Shown one piece after another: positions 31,494 to 43,834 of a stretch of 64,000 bases of DNA. Origin of the DNA: an uncultured Chloroflexia bacterium (lineage in GTDB: Bacteria; Chloroflexota; Anaerolineae; CG2-30-64-16). Within the stretch, counting starts at the first letter, position 1. The number at the start of each line of letters is the position of its first letter. The notes beneath the pieces were generated by a model that worked only from the letters and a program-made list of their open reading frames with translations, did no database searches and was not told where the DNA came from. The position numbers were made by a program, and so were the translations under genes. The stretch lies in assembly GCA_963774265.1 (NCBI GenBank), contig CAVZDU010000003.1, positions 352,001 through 416,000 of the forward strand, given 5' to 3'.

Positions 31494-32896
31494 ATGAACC
31501 AATACCTTCCGGGTCGGATCAGGCAAGCTGCGATGCTGGCACTCTCCGTTTCGATGCTCGTGGGTTGTACGGCGACCTTCGTTCCTTTGCAGCCCACTGA
31601 CTCTCCCATCCAGGCGACCCTCACCGCGCTGGTGCTCCCTGTGCAGGTGTCAAGGCCGAACACAGGGGAAACGAGCCTGAAGCAGGATGATACGGTGGTC
31701 GTGGGAATCGATGACCGGGTCGGGGTGCCGGAGAGTGGGCATGCGGTAGTGCAGGTCGGCGACCGTTTGGTGGTCGATGTTCTCGCGGGGCGGACTTCAG
31801 CATACCGGAGGTCAGACGTGAGCCAGGCGATGCCATCTTCGCGAGACTGAAGCAGATCAAAGGTCACTCCCACGTCGTGTTGAACGGAAATGCGAACGCG
31901 CGGGTGCGGCTGGAGACCGACTTTGCATCTATCACGACCCTGGAACCCGGGAACGGAATACCTGGTGTGCCACGATCCAACCCTGCTGACCTGCCTCGTC
32001 GTCTTAAAGGGGGAGGTGGAGGTCGTCGGACAGGGCAAGGTGGTCAGAGTCCAGGCTGGTGAGGGCACATATGTCCTTAAGGATAAACCTCCGTTTCCGC
32101 CGATTTGTGCGCATTTGGGGGACGTGAATGGATGGCTGGACAAACAACTGGGCACAGGATCGATCAAAGCCTTGGGTGAGCTTGTCGCAGGATGGAAGCA
32201 GGAATCCTGTGCTGCCGCAACTGCAGCGGCGCCGGTTGCGGTGTACACCAGCCAGCCTCAGGCCCTTCCTTTGTCCGAGGGCATGATCAAGGTTGAAGCT
32301 GGCGCCTATACGGTCGGCAGCACGCATCGGACGAGTTTCATATTCCTCCAATACAGAAGAAGCTGCCGACCTTCTGGATCGACATTCACGAAGTGACAAA
32401 TGCGCAATATGAAGCGTTCTCAACCAGACCGGCCATCCGAAACCCGCTTCTTGGCCGGCAGGATAATCACCCGGTCAAGGGTGTCACCTGGGACGATGCG
32501 GTTGCCTATTGCGCTTGGGCCAACAAGCGCTTGCCGTCTGAGGCCGAATGGGAAGTGGCCGCCCGGGGACCCAGCGCGGATCCGCCGTTGTATCCCTGGG
32601 GTAGCGATCCGGAGGACGGTGGGAAGGTTGACTATCTCCCCCGCACCGAAACCTATGAAGTCGGCAGCGTTGCCTTTAACATGAGCCCCTTCGGTGTCTA
32701 TGACATGGCCGGCAATGTCTGGGAGTGGGTGGGTGACCCATACTACCCCGTATCGGAAGGCATGAAGATCGTGCGAGGCGGCCGCTACGGGCGGATCAGG
32801 GATATGGCTTACCGCCAGCAAGCAGAACCCAAGAGCGGACGTTTCGTCCCCTATGCCGGTTTTCGCTGTGCGGCCGATCAGGTGGAAGGAGAGTGA
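31494..32896 (+). CDS. lipoprotein with FecR-like beta domain and C-terminal FGE-sulfatase (SUMF1) domain (frameshifted)
   Basis: Lipobox LVGC; EVTNAQY, HPVKGVTW, RLPSEAEWE, YPWG, DMAGNVWEW, RGG, GFRC across ORFs 31437, 31890 and 32393. Confidence 0.75.
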
Positions 32897-32899
32897 GGG

Positions 32900-34585
32900 A
32901 TGAAAAGGTCTTTTCGACTCTGGAGAGAGCATGGGTGCTGTTTCTCGTCTTAGCAGTCAGCAGTTGCACCGGTATGCAGTTCAACCGGCGCCAACCGGGG
33001 CTAAAGCTGTTGTAAGTCCTGCGCCGACAGGCAGATCCGGTCCGGCAGCTTCGGCGACAGCCCCGGCTGCAGCATCGGGTCCGAGGGCTTCCGCAACGCC
33101 GGCTTCGGCGCCGGCATGGGCGCTACTCCTGCCGCGATGGGTGAATCCGCATCCGCCGTGGCAGCCGCGCCTGTCAAGCAGGCAGTCGCCCAGAAGGGCG
33201 TGCTGTATCAGGATGATTTCACGGATCCGAAGAGTGGTTGGCCGAACAGTCTGGAGTATGGCAACTACTACATTGGCTATCATGAGCCGAATCACTACCA
33301 CGTGGAAGTCCATGTGCCGAACGATCGGGCGGTGGTGCCGTGCCGAAGCAGACCTTCGGCGACTTCACGATGGAGACGAAGGTCTGGGCCGATCCGAACA
33401 ACACAGCCAAGACCGGCGATTTCCGTTACGGTCTGGTCTTCCGGCGGTCGGGCAACCAGTACTATGCGTTCGTGGTCTCGCCGCGCACCAAGACCTGGTA
33501 TGTGCTGAAGAGTTCTCCGGGCGGTCTGGTGGACTCTGAAGAAAGGCAGCAATGATTCGATCCAGGGTCTGACGGCCGACGACACCTTGCGCGTGGATGC
33601 CAAGGGGTCGACCTTCTTCTTCCACATCAACGATCAGGAGCGTCGGCCAGGTCAGCGATGCCGACTACGCCAGCGGCGAGGCGGGCTTCCTGGTCGAGAC
33701 GCAGGACAGCCCCCGCGCCCACATCCATTACGGCACAACCACGATCCGCGAGGTCGAGACTGCTCAGCCTTCAGCGAGCATCCTGTATCGGGATGATTTC
33801 ACGGATCCTGAAGAGTGGTTGGCCGAACAGTGTGGAGTATGACAACTACTACATTGGCTATCATGAGCCGAACCACTACCACGTGGAAGTCCATGTGCCG
33901 AACGACCGGGCGGTGGTGCCGTGCCGAAGCAGACCTTCGCCGACTTCACGATGGAGACGAAGGTCAGGACCGATCCGAACAACACAGCCAAGACCGGCGA
34001 TTTCCGTTACGGTCTGGTCTTTCGTCGTTCGGGCAACCAGTACTATGCGTTCGTGGTCTCGCCGCGCACCAAGAGCTGGTATGTGCTGAAGAGTTCTCCG
34101 AGCGGTCTGGTGACCCTGAAGCAAGGCACGCAATGATTCGATCCAGGGTCTGACGGCTGACGACACCTTGCGCGTGGATGCCAAGGGGTCGACCTTCTTC
34201 TTCCACATCAACGATCAGGAGCGTCGGCCAGGTCAGCGATGCCGACTACGCCAGCGGCGAGGCAGGGTTCCTGGTCGAGACGCAGGACAGCCCGCGCGCC
34301 CACATCCATTACGGCACAACCACGATCCGCGAGGTCGAAACCCCACAGCTTGTGTGCACGGTAACCGCGTACGCGCTCAATGTTCGGAGCGGGCCAGGCA
34401 TGACGTACCCTTCGCTGGTCGTCATGCGAAGCGGCGCTCAATTCGAGCCGCTTGCCCGCGACGCTGTTGGATCATGGATCAATGTGCGTGTCATAAGTGG
34501 CGATATGAAGGGTTGGATTTCAAGCGCGCCAGCGTTCGTGACCTGTAACATGGCGGTTAACGACCTGGCGGTGCGCCAACCATGA
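32900..34585 (+). CDS. lipoprotein with two tandem DUF1080/LamG-like beta-sandwich domains and C-terminal SH3 (frameshifted)
   Basis: MKRSFRLW...VLFLVLAVSSC, Pro/Ala linker, 2x LYxDDFTDP.SGW...FxDFTME...YGLVFR...FHIN...SGEAG, ALNVRSGPG...GWIS. Confidence 0.7.
33203..34338 (+). repeat. intragenic direct tandem duplication, ~580-bp period
   Basis: 33203-33757 and 33783-34338 are near-identical by eye. Confidence 0.95.
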
Positions 34586-36631
34586 CTGAGTTCGCCGACC
34601 TGGAGATTGGGCTGCACCGTCGAGATGCCAGCGTCTACGTCATCGAGTTTCGTTTCAGCCAGCCCAACAGCGAAGCCGATGTGCGTCTTGATCAGGGCCA
34701 ATCGGCTCAGGCGGCTTTTGACCTCGGCTGAACTCATCAGCCTGGTCTACGACCCTGCGGCTTACGGACAAAACCTGACACAGTCCTTCTTCGCGGAGCC
34801 CGCCGTCCAGACCGCGTTCGTGCAGGCGCGTGCCAGCGCCCAATCGCTTGGCGCGCCTCTGCGCGTCCGGCTGCTGATCGGCGCCAGTGCCGGCGAGCTG
34901 CAGGCTCTGCATTGGGAGTTGCTGGCTGATCCGCAAGGGAACAGCCCGCTCTCTACCAGCGAGAACCTGCTTTTTTCTCGCTATCTGAGCAGCCTGGATT
35001 GGCGCCCCGTTCGACTGCGCGCCAAAGGTGAGCTGCGGGCTCTCGTCGTGGTTGCGAACCCATCCAACCTCTCCGACTATGGCCTGACGCCGATCGACGT
35101 GGCCGGGGAGCTGGTCCGGGCACGCGATGGGCTCGGCGAGATTCCCATCACCCCCTTGCCCGACTCGGATGGCGTCCGGCGGGCCACTTTGAACAATCTG
35201 GTCGCGCTGCTGCGCGAGACCGAGTACGATATTCTCTACCTGGTGTGCCACGGCGCCCTGGTCAAGTCGGAACCCTGGCTTTGGCTGGAAGACGATCAGG
35301 GTAAAGTGGCGCGCGCTTCGGGCGTCGAATTGGTTACTCGTCTTGGCGAATTGACGACGCGTCCTCGCTTGCTCGTGCTGGCCTCTTGCGAGAGCGCGGG
35401 CGACGGCTCCGGAGATGCGCTTGCTGCCCTCGGACCTCGATTCGCCGAGGCCGGCATCCCGGCGGTGCTGGCGATGCAGGGCAAGATCAGCGTGCAGACG
35501 TTGTCGCAGTTCATGCCGGTGTTTTTCCATGAGCTGCAACGTGACGGTCAGATCGACCGGGCAGTGGCGGTGGCGCGGGGCGCGGTTCGCCAGCGGCCCG
35601 ATCATTGGATGCCGGCTTTGTTCATGCGCCTCAAAAGCGGGCGCATCTGGTATGTTCCCGGTTTCGCCGACGAGCAGGAAGACTTTGAAAAATGGTCCAG
35701 CCTGTCCGGTTTCGTCCACGACCGGACCTGTACGCCGATCCTGGGACCCGGGCTAATCGACAGTATCATCGGCTCCCGGCGCGACATCGCGGTTCGCTGG
35801 GCCGAGCGACACGGCTTCCCCCTGGCCAGCCAGGACAGGGACAATCTCCAGCAGGTGGCCCAGTATCTTCTGACCCGTCAATCGCCGGCCTATGTGCCGG
35901 TTATCTATCGAGAGGCACTGCGCGAGGCAGTGCTGTGCCGCTTTAGCGCCGCACTACCCGCAGAGCTGCAGCAGGTCGCCACCTGGTCAACTCCTCAGTT
36001 GCAGCAGGCGCTCGGGTTGGTGTCTGACCGTTATTCGATGGACAACCCATCCGAGCCTTATGACTTGCTGGCGCGGTTGCGCTTGCCGATTTACGTCACC
36101 ACCTCGACACTCGATTTCATGACCCAGGCCCTGGTCGGGGCCGGCGCTGAGCCGGTCGTGCGGATCTGCCCATGGAACAAGTGGATCCCAAAGGAAAAGG
36201 CCATCTACGAAGACGAACCCACTCCGGAAAGGCCGCTGGTATATCATCTGTTCGGCCACTTGAGCGTGCCGAGCTCGCTCGTGCTCGCCGAGGACACGTT
36301 CTTCGATTATCTGATCGGAGTGACACAGAACAAGAGCCTGATCCCCAGCGCAGTGCGGGCAGCCCTAAGCAACACCTCCCTCTTGTTTCTCGGCTTCCAG
36401 ATGGACGACTGGGAGTTCCGGGTCTTTTTCCGTTTTCTCATAGGGCAGGAAGGGAAGGAAATGCTCAAGCTGTACAGCCATGCTGCGGCGCAGATCGAGC
36501 CGGAAGAGACCCGCATCCTGGATCTCAAGCGCGCCCGCAAGTACCTGGAAGAGTACTTCGAAAGCGAGCACATCGCTATCTACTGGGGCAGCACCGAGGA
36601 ATTCCTGAAAGCGCTATGGCAACATCTGTAG
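34582..36631 (+). CDS. CHAT (caspase-like) protease fused to a SIR2-like (SIR2_2) domain
   Basis: Start MTEFADLEIG at 34582 (frameshift near 34720); LHWELL, YLVCHG, VLASCES, PAVLAMQ; then PILGPG, YVTTS, VYHLFG, SLLFLGFQMDDWEFR. Confidence 0.85.
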
Positions 36632-39600
36632 GTGAGCCCAATCCATATATCGGCCCGCGCGCCTTCCAATTGGGCGAGCGCATCTATGGCCGGGAGCACG
36701 AAGCCAGCCAGTTGGTCAACCTGATCATCGCTGAACGGGTCGTGCTGCTTCATTCCCCTTCCGGCGCGGGCAAGACCTCCCTGATCCAGGCCGCCCTGAT
36801 CCCAAGATTGCTGAAGAGCAGGTTCCAGGTGTTGCCTGTGGTGCGCGTCAATCTGGCTTCGCCGATTCGAAGGACCGGGACCCTGAATCCAACCGCTATG
36901 TCTACAGCGCTCTGCTGTCTCTGGAAGAAGGGCTGTCCCCCGGCCAGCAAGTTGGGTCAGCCGATCTGGCCCGGATGAGTCTCTCGGACTATCTGGCACA
37001 GCGGCCAGGCCGGAAGGCGCACTCGACATCCAGGTGCTCATCTTCGACCAGTTCGAGGAAATCCTCACCCTGGATCCCACGGACCTGGCTGCCAAGCAGG
37101 AGTTTTTCAGGCAGCTGGGCGATGCGCTGGCCGCGCCCAAGCGCTGGGCGCTGTTTTCCATGCGCGAGGATCATGTTGCGGCCCTCGATCCGTACAAGCT
37201 GCCTATCCCGAGCCTCTTGGCGAACACATTCCGACTCGACCTGCTGGGCCTGGAGGCGGCTCGCCAGGCGATCCAGCGACCGGCCCTGCAAGCCGGGGTC
37301 GAGTTCGAGGACGCGGCGGTTGAAAAACTGGTGGATGATCTGCGCCGGGTGCGCGTGCAGCAGCCGGATGGTTCGGTGGCGCCACAGCTGGGCCCACACG
37401 TCGAGCCGGTGCAGCTCCAAGTGGTTTGCCATCGACTGTGGGAAACCCCGCGTCCCGCCATGGGACGGATCACCGAGCAGGACCTCGCGGCGTTCGGGCA
37501 GGTGGACCAATCGTTGGTCGACCAGTCCCTGGCAGAGTACTATGCCGAGCGGGTGGCGGCTGTCGCGGCCGAAACCGGGACAAGCGAGCGCAGCATCCGG
37601 GAATGGTTCAATCGCCGGCTGATCACCGAGCAGGGCGTGCGCGGCACGGTGCTGATGGGAAAGGAACGAAGCGGCAGCTTGGACAACCGTGCTATCCGGT
37701 CCTGGTCGATGCCTATCTGGTGCGAGGCGAGAAACGCGGCGGGGCCACCTGGTTCGAGCTGTCCCACGATCGACTGATCGGACCGGTTCGCGGTGGATAA
37801 TGCTGCATGGTTCAAGGCCAACCTGAGCCTGGTCCAGCAGCGCGCCGACGTGTGGGAACAACAGGACCGGCCAGAGAGCCTGCTGCTGCGCGGGCAGGAG
37901 CTAGCGCAGGCCAGGTTGTGGGCGGAGGACCATCAGGCGGAGTTGCTGCCCTCCGAGGTGGATTACCTGGCCGGCAGCCAGGAGCAGGCTATCCGTGCCT
38001 TACGCCTGAGGCGACGCAACCAGGTCATTTTGGTGCTGGGAATAGCGTCGATGCTGCTTGCCTTCGTGGCTTCGCTAGCCTTCAGGACGGCAGCCCGTGA
38101 GCGGGACTTGGCCCGACGCCAGGAACGGCTGGCGCGTGCGGGCCAGTTGGCGGCGCAGTCGCAGGCCGCCCTGCAAGCGTTTCCGCCTCGCAGCATGTTA
38201 TTGGCCGTCGAGGCCCTGAGCGTTACGCTCAAGGCCGGTGAGCCGCGCCTGGCGAATGCCGAAAATGCTCTGCGCGGTGCTCTCAGCGATCCCCATGGGA
38301 TACCCTTGCCCGGTCACACGGGTGAAATCAAGGCCCTGGCCTTCAGCCCGGAGTGCGGCGGCTCACTCAGTGCGCCCGGCGGAGCTGTCCCTGGGACAGC
38401 GGCGCGGTGTGGACACTGGTTGGCCACCGGCAGCGATGACAATACCGTCCGGTTGTGGTCCATCGACGCCACGGATGGGGCCGCGAGTCCACTCATCCTG
38501 TCAGGCCACGAGAACCGCGTCACCGCCCTGGCCTTCAGCCCGGAGGGCCGTTGGCTGGCCTCAGGGAGCGCGGATCAGACCCTCCGGCTCTGGGACCTGC
38601 CGCGCCGCGGATCCCGCTGCGAATCCCCTGGTTCTGAACAGCCAGGGTGGTGACGTGTATGCATTGGCCTTCAGCCCGGAGGGCCGTTGGTTGGCCGCCG
38701 GCGGCCTCGACGGAAGGGTGCAGTTGTGGGACATGGCCGCGCCTGTAGCGGGAGCCACGCCGGTCATCCTATCCGGCCACCAGGGCTCGATCCTCATACT
38801 CGCCTTCAGCCCTGGCGGTCACTGGCTGGCAGCAGGCAGCGATGACAGGACCGTCCGGCTCTGGGACATGACCGCCGGGAATGTCGATGCGTCCCTGAGA
38901 GTTCTGCGCGGGCATGAGGGCGTGATCACCAGCCTGGCCTTCAGCGCAGACGGACGGTGGCTGGCCACCGGCAGTCGAGACAAGACGGCCAGGCTGTGGG
39001 ACCTGGCCGCGGCCGATCCGGAGGCTCAGCCGCGCGTTTTGCGCGGGCACAGCGATTGGGTCAACGCCCTCGCATTCAGCCCGGAGTGCGACCGCCTGCG
39101 CGAAGGGTCAGCGGATTCGTGTGTGCAATGGCTCGCGACCGGGAGCGGCGACAAAACCGTCATGCTGTGGGACCTGAGTGCTCCGGAGGCGGTCGCCTCT
39201 CCACGGGTTCTCACGGGTCACGAGGGGGCTATCAACACCCTCGCCTTCAGCCCCGAGGGTCGTTGGTTGGCGACCGGCAGTACGGACAAGACTGCTCGAC
39301 TGTGGGACCTGCGTGCGGGAGACCCCGGCCCGGCCCCAGTTGTTTTGCGCGGACATGAAGATTGGGTCAATACCCTCGCCTTCAGTCCGTGGTGCTACAA
39401 CCCGCCTGGGGCCTCCGGCGAAGCAGTCCTGGGGACAGGGGACGGGTGCCCGCGTCTGTTGGCCACCGGCAGCAAGGACATGACCACGCGGTTGTGGGTC
39501 GTGGGCGCCGTCGACCCGACCGCGGATCCCATCGTTTTGAACAGTCACAAGGACCAGGTCAACACCCTGGCATTTGACCCGGACGGACGTTGGCTGGCGA

Positions 39601-40874
39601 CCGGTGGGGGCGATCCGGCCGGATCGCCGGGCGGCGACAATACCGACAATGCCGTTCGGCTGTGGGATGTGGGAGCCGCTGGCCCGGCCGCGGCTCCCAT
39701 CCTCCTGAGCGGCCATGATAAGTGGATCAGCACGCTCGCCTTTAGCCCGAGGTGCGGCGCCCCATTCGGAGGGTCAGCGGCGCGGTGTGTGCAATGGCTT
39801 GCAACCGGCAGCGGAGACAGTACCGTCAGGTTGTGGGACCTAAGCGCCGGGGATGGTGTCGCCTCGCCCCGCGTCCTGACCGGCCATGCAGGGCCTATCA
39901 CTGCTCTCGCCTTCAGCCCACAGTGCGCCAACTCAACCGGAGCGACAAGCGTGCCAGCCCAGGGGTCAGCGGAGCAGTGCGCCCGCTGGCTGGCGACCGG
40001 CAGCCAGGACAAGACCGCGCGGCTCTGGAACCTGTCAGCCGCGGGCCCGGTCGGAGACGCACGCGTCTTGGCTGGCCACGAATCGATCGTCAGGGCGTTG
40101 GCGATCAGCCCGGATGGACGCTGGCTGGCCACCAACAGCGACTACACCACTTATTTGTGGGACCTCACCGCGCTGGGCGCGGATCCAATCAGGCCGGCGC
40201 ACACCCTGCACGAACACAGCGATTTCGTCACCAGTCTCGCCTTCAGTCCCGACAGCCGCTGGCTGGCCACCGGAGGTGGGAGCAGCGACAAGACGATCCG
40301 GGTATGGGACATGCGCGCTGCCAACCCCGCGGCCAATCCCAAAATCCTAACCGGTCCCCAGGCTGAGGTTAGCGTGCTGGCCTTCAGCCCGGGGTGCCCT
40401 GGCTCATCCCAAGCGCCGGCGGGGGGGTGCGGGCGCTGGCTGGCCGCTGGCAGCAAGGATAAGATAGTCCTGGTGTGGCCTGTTGGCGAGGACGGTCCGG
40501 GCGGGGAGCCGCTCGTCCTGCGCGGCCACTCGGGGTCGATCACCGCCCTGGCCTTTAGCACAGACGGCAATTGGCTTGCCACCGGCAGCGATGATGAGAC
40601 GGCCAGGCTGTGGGATCTGCATTCCCCGAACACTTCGGCCCAGTCTGCCGTGTTAGGGGGCCACGCGGCAGGGGTCCTCACCCTGGCTTTTGACCCGGAG
40701 GGCCGCTGGCTGGCCACAGGCAGCCAGGACCACACCGTTCGATTGTGGTCCTTGTCCCTGGACAACCTGATCAGCCTGGCCTGTTCTGGTGCGGGGCGGA
40801 ATCTCACCCAGGAGGAATGGGTGGAGTTCTTCCCCGGCGAGACCTACCGCAAGACCTGCACCCAGTGGCCCTGA
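36616..40874 (+). CDS. nSTAND1-type NTPase, TM helix, 16 WD40 repeats (several frameshifts)
   Basis: NPYIGPRAF, YGRE, SPSGAGKTSL, IFDQFEE, MRED, LQVVC, ELSHDRL, LLLRG, TM VILVLGIASMLLAFVASLAF, GH...AFSP...WLATGS...LWD repeats, ACSGAGRNLTQEEW...TC tail. Confidence 0.85.
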
Positions 40875-40900
40875 CTTTGCCCGGCACCCGCCATCGGCCG

Positions 40901-42334
40901 TCAGGCGCGGTTCTCCACGTTCTGCCCTGTCGATAGGCGCACGGCCGGATCACCGATAATGGCGTAGCCGCGCGCATCATTGTTGGCCATCCACATGTGG
41001 GCCAACTCGTAGGGGTCGACCTTCAACCCCGCTTCGATCTCTTCCAGCTCATCGGTCAGCACCGTCGACAGCTCGGCCCAGCGTTGATTGAAGTATTCGA
41101 GCGCTGAGCCGATGGGGTGGCCGTCGAGCAGGCGCTGGAGCGTACTCTCGAAGACGGTTGTCTGCGCTCCCGCATCCGGCCAATCGAAGGAAAAGGACCA
41201 GGCGCGTTCGATGTGGCCGACCACTGCGAGCGCGCCGCCGCGGGGGTGGGATAGCATTTTCTTCGGCAGCTCCGCGGTAAAGGAGAATGGCGCGATGGGC
41301 CTCGGCTGCGCGAAGGCCTGTTTCGAATACTCGTCCACCCTGGGCGTGCCCGCCCCATAACATGCGAAGAAGAAGGCCACCATGCCCAGAAGGTTGGCGC
41401 TTTCAGCCAGGTCTTCGCCGGCAAAATAGTGGTCGCGTGAGATCGGCCGCCTGCCCCAGGCCTCTGGCCCAGGCCAATCCTGGCAAAGCAGAGCGCCCTG
41501 GTGCTGCATCTGACGCGGGTCGTCGAACGGAAACTCCATCCCGTGGCTCCCGGTCATGAGCAGGGCGGGCGCTTCGGGTCCCCCCAGAAGTGCCTGTAGT
41601 CGCGCCTTGGTCGCGCCATCCCGCAGGACCGACCGGATGTCCCAACCGGAACTCTTCGCACTGAAGGCCTTGTAGAGAGGTTCGATGAGGTTGCCGGTGG
41701 AGAGCGTCGTTGCACGGTCGCCGGGGTTGGCGACTCCGAAAAATGTGGCGGTGCGGGGCGGCGTGGTGTCAAGTTTTTCCGCGGCGACCACGCTGCCCGC
41801 ATAGCTGGCATACTCCTGTAATGTGTCAAAATCGAGACGGCCGACGGCATGTTGGACATCCAGCTCGTATTGAAACCGATAGGGGATCTCTTCAGGATGA
41901 CCGACAATCAAGAGGTAATAGGGAACCTTGTCAGGGTCGACCGGTCCCGGGCCAGCCCCGTAACGGCCGAGAAACCTCGATTTGGTGTCCGCGCCGCGGC
42001 GATAACCCTCCGCGCCGCTGAAGAGGCGAAAGTGGGGGCCGGCTTGCGTTTTGCGGAGCGCGAGGAGGTCTGTCAACGCCTCCTCGATGGCCGGGTCGGC
42101 GTCATCCGCGAAGATGATCCCCCAACCGGCCTCATCCAGCTTCTTGGGGTCGATCCCTTCCTTGAGGCCACGGTTCTCTTCGCTTTCGGTCAAGTGATAG
42201 CGAAGCTCCTTTGAATTCTCAGGTGTCCCAAGGCGCAGGATGACCGCCGCAAGTTCTTCGCCCGTCATGGGCGGTATTCCGTAGTCGCCGGTGGCGCCAT
42301 TGACGCCATTGAAGACGAGCTGCTTCTCGGACAT
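40901..42334 (-). CDS. peptidase C25 / caspase-hemoglobinase fold protein
   Basis: PYYLLIVG, AVGRL, LMTGSHG (His), FFFACYG (Cys), GGALAVVGH, IIGDPA. Confidence 0.78.
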   Translation of the reverse strand: MSEKQLVFNGVNGATGDYGIPPMTGEELAAVILRLGTPENSKELRYHLTESEENRGLKEGIDPKKLDEAGWGIIFADDADPAIEEALTDLLALRKTQAGPHFRLFSGAEGYRRGADTKSRFLGRYGAGPGPVDPDKVPYYLLIVGHPEEIPYRFQYELDVQHAVGRLDFDTLQEYASYAGSVVAAEKLDTTPPRTATFFGVANPGDRATTLSTGNLIEPLYKAFSAKSSGWDIRSVLRDGATKARLQALLGGPEAPALLMTGSHGMEFPFDDPRQMQHQGALLCQDWPGPEAWGRRPISRDHYFAGEDLAESANLLGMVAFFFACYGAGTPRVDEYSKQAFAQPRPIAPFSFTAELPKKMLSHPRGGALAVVGHIERAWSFSFDWPDAGAQTTVFESTLQRLLDGHPIGSALEYFNQRWAELSTVLTDELEEIEAGLKVDPYELAHMWMANNDARGYAIIGDPAVRLSTGQNVENRA

Positions 42335-42499: not shown

Positions 42500-42546
42500 G
42501 CCGCGTAGGTAGGGGCAGCCGCAGGTGCTGCCCCTACCTACGCGGC
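42500..42546. repeat. perfect 20-bp inverted repeat (GTAG REP-like or terminator) overlapping the metY stop
   Basis: gccgcgtaggtaggggcagc-cgcaggt-gctgcccctacctacgcggc. Confidence 0.8.
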
Positions 42547-43834
42547 GCTGGCCTCCAGCGCCTGATCCAGGTCCCACAGGATGTCGTCGATATCCTCGAG
42601 GCCGACGCTCAGGCGGATGAAGTCGGGCGTGACGCCGGCCGTCGCCAGCTCGTCCTCGCTGAGCTGGCTGTGCGTGGTGCGTGGCCGGATGGATGGCCAG
42701 GCTCTTGGCGTCGCCGACGTTGGCCAGGTGGCTGAAGAGCTTGCAGGCTCTCGATGAACCTGCTGGCCGGCCGCCACGCCGCCCTTGATGCCGAAGCCCA
42801 GGATCGCGCCCGGCGCCCTTGGGCAGATACTTCTTGGCCCGCTCGTGATCGGGATGGCTGGCCAGGCCCGGGATAGCTGACCCAGCTCACCCGCGGATGC
42901 GCCGTCCAGGAACTCGGCCACCGCCTGGGCGTTGGCCACGTGGCGATCCATGCGCAGGCTGAGGGTCTCGATGCCCTGGATGGTCTGCCAGCTATTGAAC
43001 GGCGCCTGGCAGGCGCCGATGTCGCGCAGGATCTGCACGCGCGCCTTGAGGATGAACGCCGGCGCGCCCAGGTCGGCGTAGACCAGCCCGTGGTACGATG
43101 GGTCGGGCGTGGTGAAGTTGGCGAAGCGGCCGCTGGTCCAGTCGAAGTTGCCGCCGTCGACGATCACGCCGCCGATGGTGGTGCCGTGGCCGCCGAGGAA
43201 CTTGGTGGTGCTGTGGACGACGATGTTGGCGCCCCACTCGAACGGCCGGCACAGGTAGGGCGTGGCGAAGGTGTTGTCGATCATGAGCGGGATGCGCGTG
43301 CTGCCTGGCCAGCGCCGCCACCTCCTCGAACGGGAAGACGCTGATGTCGGGATTGCCCAGCGTCTCGCCGTAGAGGATCTTGGTGTTGGGCCGGATCGCC
43401 TTCTCGAAGTCGCCCGGGTCGGTCGGATCGACGAAGGTCACGTCGATGCCGATGCGCGGGAAGGTGTAGGCGAACTGGTTGTAGGTGCCGCCGTAGAGCC
43501 GGCTGCTGGTGACGATGTGGTCGCCCGCGCCGCACAGGGTGAGGATCGCCATGGGCCTGCGCGGCGTGGCCGCTGACTGGCCGCCAGCGCGCCGACGCCG
43601 CCTTCCAGGTCTGGCCAGGCGCTGCTCGAGCACGTCGGTGGTCGGGTTCATGATGCGGGTGTAGATGTTGCCGAACTCCTTCAGGGCGAACAGATTGGCG
43701 GCGTGCTCGGTGTCGCGGAACTGGTAGCTGGTGGTCTGGTAGATCGGCACGGCGCGGCTGCCGGTGGTCGGGTCGGGCTGCTGGCCGGCGTGCAGTTGGC
43801 GGGTGGTGAAGCCGAGCTTGCGTTCGGTGATCAT
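42538..43834 (-). CDS. metY: O-acetylhomoserine aminocarboxypropyltransferase (multiple frameshifts)
   Basis: RAVPIYQTTSY, GNIYTRIMNPT, LYGGT, IDNTFATPYL, HSTTKFLGGHG, IRLSVGLE. Confidence 0.92.

Follow-up and report, generated by a model that had tools for sequence, protein, structure and literature searches.

Cysteine-bracketed loops in the WD40 propellers of a predicted membrane-anchored nSTAND1 sensor from an uncultured Chloroflexota bacterium

The signal transduction ATPases with numerous domains (STAND) include a clade of nSTAND1 proteins with C-terminal WD40 repeats (PF20703) that was named by Kaur, Iyer, Burroughs and Aravind in 2021 (PMC8195603). In the available text of that paper, the members have an nSTAND1 P-loop nucleoside triphosphatase (NTPase) ahead of their WD40 repeats, and an effector gene (CHAT, SIR2-like) lies next to the gene. 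The gene described here has the same plan and occupies positions 36617 (ATG) to 40874 on the + strand of a 64,000-nucleotide window, the whole stretch of DNA that was analyzed, from an uncultured Chloroflexia bacterium (assembly GCA_963774265.1, contig CAVZDU010000003.1, positions 352,001 to 416,000). It also has two features that the available text of PMC8195603 does not mention for the clade, namely, a membrane helix ahead of the WD40 repeats and cysteine-bracketed insertions in the blades. The helix is common in the family at large, an internal hydrophobic segment being present in 93 of the 120 best homologs of near length, whereas the loops occur in only 2 (P0011 and the 68%-identical P0121) of the 240 closest homologs. 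Neither Cys-bracketed loops in WD40 proteins nor nSTAND1 proteins with a helix ahead of their WD40 repeats were described in the literature searched, as far as its text was accessible. The loops are what is new; the gene family and the layout of a helix plus external WD40 repeats are known or expected.

Genes of the HET-E/HET-D type and other highly repetitive WD40 genes consist of near-identical, recombining repeats whose variable point positions lie on the top face. As in the fungal HET-E and HET-D receptors of the nucleotide-binding, leucine-rich-repeat (NLR) type, in the available account of PMC12222747, and in the bacterial highly repetitive propeller 2ymu, the WD40 repeats of the present protein are the sensor part of a STAND/NLR-type protein, with variation on one surface; unlike those examples, its repeats are 46-75% identical in DNA, and its variable parts are loops in the turn between strands A and B at stable positions. 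Periplasmic arrays of WD40 or tetratricopeptide repeats (TPR) are predicted, in the accessible part of PMC11032199, for single-span Ser/Thr kinases of the Planctomycetota. Those kinases resemble the present protein in that a module using nucleotide in the cytoplasm is joined through a single membrane helix to a long WD40 array with a predicted external location, whereas the signaling module here is a STAND NTPase rather than a kinase and that part of the source describes no cysteine-closed loops. The available text of PMC10907252 describes C-type lectin (CLec) sensors on STAND NTPases, including nSTAND1, that are diversified by diversity-generating retroelements (DGRs) and of which some are predicted to be periplasmic. 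The present protein resembles these systems in joining a STAND NTPase to a fast-changing sensor part and differs in that, as described there, a reverse transcriptase rewrites their variable part, which has a C-type lectin fold; nothing pointing to this kind of diversification was seen here, no DGR search having been made.

The explanation that we favor, with somewhat better than even confidence, is a STAND sensor with exported propellers, one face of which bears flexible nooses closed by disulfides, the nooses deriving from a conserved 10-residue module that has been relaxed and expanded in this lineage. The nSTAND1 ATPase would reside in the cytoplasm, a single helix would span the membrane, and two 8-bladed WD40 propellers would lie outside as the sensor, with the coupled CHAT-SIR2 protein as the presumed effector. 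A C-Xn-C segment is inserted in the A-B turn of six blades, and its side-by-side cysteines would most likely form a disulfide outside the cytoplasm, preserving the blade turn while the flexible loop, a cystine noose, protrudes from the A-B-turn face. The nooses would descend from the 10-residue noose of a few related helix-anchored WD40 proteins, would have become rich in Gly, Ala, Ser and Pro in this lineage, and would change by point substitution and by in-place gain or loss of mostly 7 residues (21 nt), giving 10, 17 or 24 residues.

Anatomy of the gene and placement of the loops

Sixteen WD40 repeats extend from 38294 to 40757 (+ strand), with one frameshift at 38600, and were recognized by Pfam WD40 (PF00400) with 438.5 bits over 13 stretches plus 79.2 bits over 2 stretches. 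Ten of the units are near the standard of 45 amino acids (aa), at 45-56 aa; three of 57 aa contain a 10-residue loop, and three of 64 aa contain a 17-residue loop. In the six long units (repeats 1, 6, 8, 10, 11 and 14) the FSP(D/E)-G turn is replaced by FSPx-C-Xn-C-xx(W/L)LA, with n = 17, 10, 17, 10, 17 and 10 in that order. Loop 1, C-GGSLSAPGGAVPGTAAR-C (38354..38410, n = 17), has a counterpart of 24 residues in P0121 and of 13 residues in the fragment P0247. Loop 6, C-DRLREGSADS-C (39087..39122, n = 10), corresponds to DRPPEKTTEQ (n = 10) in P0121, and loop 8, C-YNPPGASGEAVLGTGDG-C (39393..39449, n = 17), corresponds to YGQPGESSGLAQGAPEQ (n = 17). Loop 10, C-GAPFGGSAAR-C (39753..39788, n = 10), is matched by loops of 17 residues in both P0011 and P0121; loop 11, C-ANSTGATSVPAQGSAEQ-C (39924..39980, n = 17), is matched by 17 residues in P0011 and 24 in P0121; and loop 14, C-PGSSQAPAGG-C (40395..40430, n = 10), has 10 residues in all three. 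All six are on the + strand. Together the loops of the window consist of 75% G/A/S/P/T/E and 2.5% aromatic residues, and a six-frame regular-expression search of the whole 5.5 Mb genome found no other gene with such loops.

The loops had been noticed in a sequence-only reading of the window, whose coordinates, sequences and lengths for them are reproduced exactly by translation. That reading had also pointed to a DNA motif common to four loops: GGGWCAGCGG has 5 matches in the window, 4 of them in loops 1, 6, 10 and 11, compared with 0.74 expected, and none of 100 shuffles reached 5.

The gene opens directly with the nSTAND1 domain, which Pfam recognized at 36617..37792 (+) in two frameshift-separated pieces of 41.8 and 58.1 bits (cut-off, 27.1), and the P-loop GAGKTS is readable in the translation. 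PF20703 is also in the precomputed domain list of P0121, and a further loop-bearing homolog, on contig L155, scores 133.3 bits for nSTAND1. Between the helix (38024..38080) and the first blade is a linker or stalk rich in Arg, Glu and Ala (38081..38293, +) that is conserved in P0121 and P0004, according to translation and alignment consensus, and is probably helical. The repeats are followed by a conserved C-terminal tail, LACSGAGRNLTQEEW...YRKTCTQWP (40758..40874, +; alignment A1), which contains the sole other pair of cysteines after the helix. P0004 (1316 aa) and P0121 (1450 aa), intact homologs with 52% and 68% identity, respectively, have these parts in the same order.

An AlphaFold2 model of repeats 9-16 and the tail, with a predicted local distance difference test (pLDDT) value of 85.9 and a predicted template modeling score (pTM) of 0.84, has four strands per unit. 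Its best matches in PDB are 8-bladed WD40 propellers (Rsa4/NLE1, ODA16 and Tako8; TMq 0.67-0.68), and since these are 8-bladed, the sixteen repeats most likely form two 8-bladed propellers. By DSSP of the model, strand A (...LAFSP) precedes and strand B (WLATGS) follows every insertion. All of the loops occupy this same turn and therefore lie on one face, as the sequence-only reading had proposed. In the usual WD40 convention the A-B turns form the bottom face, near the central channel, and this would be the face that bears the loops. Within the tight FSP(D/E)-G turn, the D/E and the G are separated by the insertion, so that the bracket cysteines are adjacent at the base of each loop. The loops were modeled at a pLDDT below 50 (residues 81-85 of loop 10, 137-151 of loop 11, and 294-301 of loop 14), and the C-terminal tail was modeled as two helices (412-423 and 429-435). 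Repeat 9 has a separate insertion, GGGDPAGSPGGDNTDN (39591-39650), between strands B and C; it has no cysteines, has a pLDDT below 50 at model residues 34-36, and is kept, 4 residues shorter, in P0011 and P0121.

Distribution and divergence of the loops

P0121 is intact and of full length and contains seven loops, in repeats 1, 3, 6, 8, 10, 11 and 14, with lengths of 24, 17, 10, 17, 17, 24 and 10; P0011 is a fragment spanning repeats 9-16, with loops of 17, 17 and 10. All six loop positions of the window gene and their 12 bracket cysteines are kept in P0121, and the loop of repeat 3 occurs in P0121 only. A DNA pattern run over 401 genomes of the class matched only the genome treated here (G000), G308 and G281. 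The match in G308, which represents another family of the class, is real: contig L155 encodes an nSTAND1-helix-WD40 protein, 1367 aa long, whose loops comprise 6 and 10 residues. The match in G281, with a stop codon inside, was put down to chance.

A profile of eight loop hairpins, compared with 1.84 billion cluster representatives, gave 15 matches at E <= 0.001, nine of which have real bracketed loops. Four others were rejected as false: P0250 and P0251 have many copies of RFSPACAGNT/RFSPACAGTT about 20-60 residues apart and look like translated DNA repeat arrays, P0254 shows a lone Cys in a turn of the standard type, and in P0248 there are 26 Cys. No bracketed loop was seen in P0245 or P0246. 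The 32 loops collected from 12 proteins comprise 18 of 10 residues, 9 of 17, 2 of 24, and one each of 5, 6 and 13. The loops of 10 residues have the consensus D-S-P-P-E-A-P/S-A-E-R, which recurs across proteins in different 50%-identity clusters. The strict alternation of two lengths reported in the sequence-only reading is a property of the window gene alone, where three 17s and three 10s would alternate by chance in 2 of 20 orders; it breaks down in P0121, and relatives have loops of 5, 6, 10 and 13.

Close to the source, no ortholog was found in the 7 genomes of the same genus (forty relatives were searched; best E-value, 2.2e-36). A search of genome contigs with repeats 9-16 yielded 16 loci, of which the best reached 36% identity; none was a close relative or had loops. 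The genome has two more long WD40 genes (G000:C2:769045-770874 and G000:C5:362668-363888, in open frames of 1349 and 1729 aa), which have no Cys-bracketed loops by regular expression. A scan of metagenomes with the DNA pattern gave at least 117 loci; among the matches listed, 21 had an FSPxC...CxxW reading and none of these 21 was in a WD40 context, the pattern being too loose to inform on spread. We regard the loops as a decoration that is rare and inherited rather than as a shuffling system of the antibody kind.

Compared with P0121, 29 of 81 loop residues (36%) but 709 of 938 scaffold residues (76%) are identical, and 40 of the 45 gapped residues fall in loops. Where the loops of close orthologs differ in length at shared positions (repeats 1, 10 and 11), they differ by 7 residues each time, and the 17-residue loops parse as two 7-residue units and a 3-residue tail. 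In DNA, unit 2 of loop 1 is 81% identical to unit 2 of loop 8, and units 1 and 2 within loop 1 match each other at 57%, the 99th percentile of the null being 52%; the scaffolds of repeats 1 and 8 are 60% identical. The loops are homologous, with DNA in common in these units and in the GGGWCAGCGG motif, and the values fit descent from one ancestral loop in which 21-nt units would be gained and lost in place. A strict length rule of 10 + 7k was rejected because lengths of 5, 6 and 13 exist.

Of the competing explanations, the one that survives best, unlikely as we think it, is that the loops are tolerated, essentially functionless insertions of low complexity, in which only the Cys brackets are selected, for blade folding, and the content drifts by replication slippage. 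Such insertions would have the low-complexity composition and low model confidence seen here and, by slippage of 21-nt units, mostly 7-residue length steps, and intact close homologs such as P0004 do without loops; this account is at odds with the retention of 12 of 12 bracket cysteines and of six positions in P0121, with a clear 10-residue consensus over several protein clusters, and with the persistence of loops in two or more families of the class. That positions are fixed, brackets invariant and a consensus recurrent argues that the loops are probably kept by selection.

A little less probable again is the proposal of the sequence-only reading that these are hypervariable recognition loops, comparable to the complementarity-determining regions (CDRs) of antibodies and shuffled by recombination between repeats to diversify recognition. 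Divergence is about twofold faster in the loops than in the scaffold, most of the indel residues fall in loops, orthologs differ in loop length at three repeats and in the presence of the loop in repeat 3, and unit 2 is more alike between loops 1 and 8 than the scaffolds around it. The three differences from loop 6 in a contig of a soil sequencing run, X1 (positions 39100, 39106 and 39108), are all at first or second codon positions, and the data are too few for a ratio of nonsynonymous to synonymous substitution (dN/dS). Faster divergence is thus the part of the CDR-like description that holds; a composition poor in aromatic residues, a pLDDT below 50, a consensus that persists across different 50%-identity clusters, and six positions in common with a 68%-identical protein do not match it. 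Shuffling by recombination fares worse. The very high DNA identity between neighboring repeats that characterizes HNWD-type genes was not found, and Tandem Repeats Finder returned 0 rows for 38000-41000. Repeat exchange is unsupported because the scaffolds are 46-75% identical in DNA, unlike those of recombining, highly repetitive WD40 genes, and no tandem array was detected; there is no sign of ongoing exchange. One joint in X1 (39086>39795), with a loop-less FSPE-GY-WLA reading, was set aside, as its flank comprises 33 nt at 85% likeness and possibly belongs to another gene.

Membrane topology and cysteine pairing

Topology was called by a script that combines hydropathy with the net charge of the 15 residues on each side of a helix. 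Ahead of the repeats, where the sequence-only reading had placed a transmembrane helix, the hydrophobic 19-mer VILVLGIASMLLAFVASLA (38024-38080, + strand) has a Kyte-Doolittle mean of 2.66 and, by this script, is a predicted single membrane-spanning helix of the signal-anchor type, with a positive-inside bias that puts its N terminus inside. The N-terminal flank of the helix in this protein has a net charge of +4, the C-terminal flank one of +2. Over the 93 helix-bearing homologs, the mean net charge is +3.7 for the N flank and +0.7 for the C flank, the N flank being the more positive in 82, the less positive in 2 and equal in 9. All five full-length loop-bearing proteins (this one, P0121, the L155 protein, P0242 and P0252) have the helix, and in each the charge of the N flank exceeds that of the C flank. 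This bias across the family fits an N terminus inside, which would place the WD40 propellers outside the cytoplasm.

The distribution of cysteines is consistent with such a location. After the helix there are 14 Cys in this protein, 16 in P0121, 6 in the L155 protein, 8 in P0242 and 4 in P0252, and every one of them belongs to a loop bracket or to the tail pair (14 of 14 here, 16 of 16 in P0121); apart from these pairs, about 950 residues of this protein are without Cys. Machinery for oxidizing thiols is present in the genome as a VKOR homolog (87.6 bits) and four DsbA-like (Thioredoxin_4) matches. Alignment A1 shows hardly any variation at the tail cysteines C420 and C445, which are the sole post-helix Cys in 30 of the 93 helix-bearing homologs, and in a wider set of 196 helix-bearing homologs, the number of Cys after the helix is even in 132 and odd in 64. 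Four cyanobacterial homologs that lack the helix have 23-27 Cys each. The tail motif, LAC..AGRNLT..EW......Y..TC, is conserved well outside the loop-bearing clade, with its Cys pair 24-25 residues apart; P0242 and P0249 have a shorter C-X8-C tail instead. From the charge bias of the family, the VKOR and DsbA-like genes and the local pairing of Cys, we infer that the propellers lie outside the cytoplasm, where the bracket cysteines are likely joined by disulfides. The extracytoplasmic location and disulfide staples proposed in the sequence-only reading thus gain indirect support.

A cytoplasmic location of the propellers, with a helix that does not span the membrane or an inverted topology, would turn the Cys pairs into reduced thiols, a redox switch or a metal site. 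We regard this as distinctly improbable. The positive charge on both helix flanks of this protein would allow it, and the characterized STAND sensors in the available account of PMC7159879 act in the cytoplasm. The family as a whole is nevertheless biased toward an N terminus inside, with N greater than C in 82 of 93 homologs, and the NTPase depends on nucleotide from the cytoplasm. A metal site formed by two thiols would be a poor one, no His or further ligand being nearby, and the long Cys-free remainder of the protein speaks against this placement as well.

Genomic context, assembly and implications

The sensor gene is directly preceded by an effector gene (34607..36631, +) whose product combines a CHAT protease domain (Pfam, 102.7 bits) with a SIR2-like domain (SIR2_2, 63.4 bits). 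The two genes overlap at the stop codon of the first and the start of the second, ATG 36617 lying within the last codons of the 34607..36631 open reading frame (ORF), and are predicted to be translationally coupled. The locus therefore has an effector gene in the same operon as an NTPase-repeat sensor, an arrangement of STAND-NTPase conflict systems with a separate effector (Kaur et al. 2020/2021), another mark of which is an effector-associated adaptor domain (EAD) shared by effector and NTPase, and contig L155 likewise has a SIR2_2 gene that overlaps the start of the sensor gene. Downstream of the sensor on L155 is a gene for an AAA-like ATPase (L155:1-759, -; AAA_22 and AAA_35 at about 24-26 bits, below the cut-offs) that runs off the end of the contig. 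Upstream of the CHAT-SIR2 gene in the window are an ORF with an FGE-sulfatase (C-type-lectin-like) domain (32393-32896, +; 118.1 bits) and a small ORF encoding a bacterial SH3 domain (34178-34585, +; 30 bits), both domain types being frequent in envelope-facing or sensor parts of conflict systems. The convergent neighbor downstream of the sensor encodes a C25-like (clan CD) peptidase (40901..42334, -; Pfam Peptidase_C25, 24.7 bits; cut-off, 23).

The frame of the sensor gene changes near positions 36879, 37004, 37701, 37790 and 38600 in three-frame translation, breaks about which the sequence-only reading was silent. The break at 38600 falls between repeats 2 and 3, and the other four lie upstream; apart from these changes, the translation tracks P0004 and P0121 residue by residue. 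The source assembly consists of 10 contigs and is 84% complete, and in it secA is spread over four frames (G000:C1:715721-718117) and rpoB over at least two (G000:C7:822-4053). The sole sequencing run found, X1, contains 5% of the words and gave short contigs 85-99% alike, coverage that suffices for three of the frameshift sites and loop 6 but not for population variability. These contigs have an added C after 37003, an added G after 37701 and one base fewer at 38600 and so differ at 3 of the 5 breaks. Because they do so and because secA and rpoB are split as well, the five frame breaks are most likely indel errors of the assembly; a strain-specific pseudogene may be an alternative cause. An O-acetylhomoserine sulfhydrylase-like gene in the window (42538-43834) also appears broken by eye, and gene calls and short-range protein sequence of this indel-prone genome should be handled with caution. 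That the loops themselves are an artefact of this error-prone assembly is barely credible, since, for all its frameshifts in secA, rpoB and the sensor gene, the insertions, at 36 and 57 nt, preserve the reading frame, and the same loop type is found at the same positions in the independent assemblies P0011, P0121 and L155.

Several observations weigh against the exported-propeller explanation. The topology comes from a hydropathy and charge script rather than from a dedicated predictor, and the signal is less clear in this protein, in which the C flank is positive too. Distant helix-bearing homologs have scattered single Cys in strands, and, with odd counts in 64 of 196, exclusion of Cys is not a feature of the whole family; homologs are not independent of one another, so that the tallies of parity and charge overstate significance. 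Low complexity and low pLDDT are equally expected of a tolerated, functionless insertion. The 13-residue loop of P0247 breaks the 10 + 7k pattern, P0247 itself ending in a frameshifted reading, and, with an indel-prone assembly, single loop residues in the window may be wrong.

With exported propellers, we infer that the loops belong to the outward interaction surface of the sensor. A bolder extension, which we offer as a doubtful one, is that the nooses serve as the outward recognition or bait module of a surface-exposed NLR-like receptor: they would bind, or be cut by, an external factor, the helix would relay the event to the cytoplasmic NTPase, and the CHAT protease and SIR2 NADase would be released. 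Several stapled loops would then ring one face of each propeller and be tuned by 7-residue slippage and fast substitution, the external factor could be a secreted protein or protease of a competitor or predator, and the system would amount to transmembrane, variable-loop immune sensing in a bacterium.

Taken by itself, the finding is a minor structural elaboration, of at most putative function, that a few uncultured lineages share. The loops show that a WD40 blade accommodates an insertion of 12-26 residues without loss of its tight turn, which may help propeller engineers, and they mark the surface where the sensor changes fastest between relatives. STAND/NLR-type sensors are usually regarded as cytoplasmic, and the present family seems to have its WD40 sensor on the outside of the cell. 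The loop-bearing members would in that respect provide a built-in chemical test, since oxidation of the bracket cysteines in vivo would mean that the propellers are exported.

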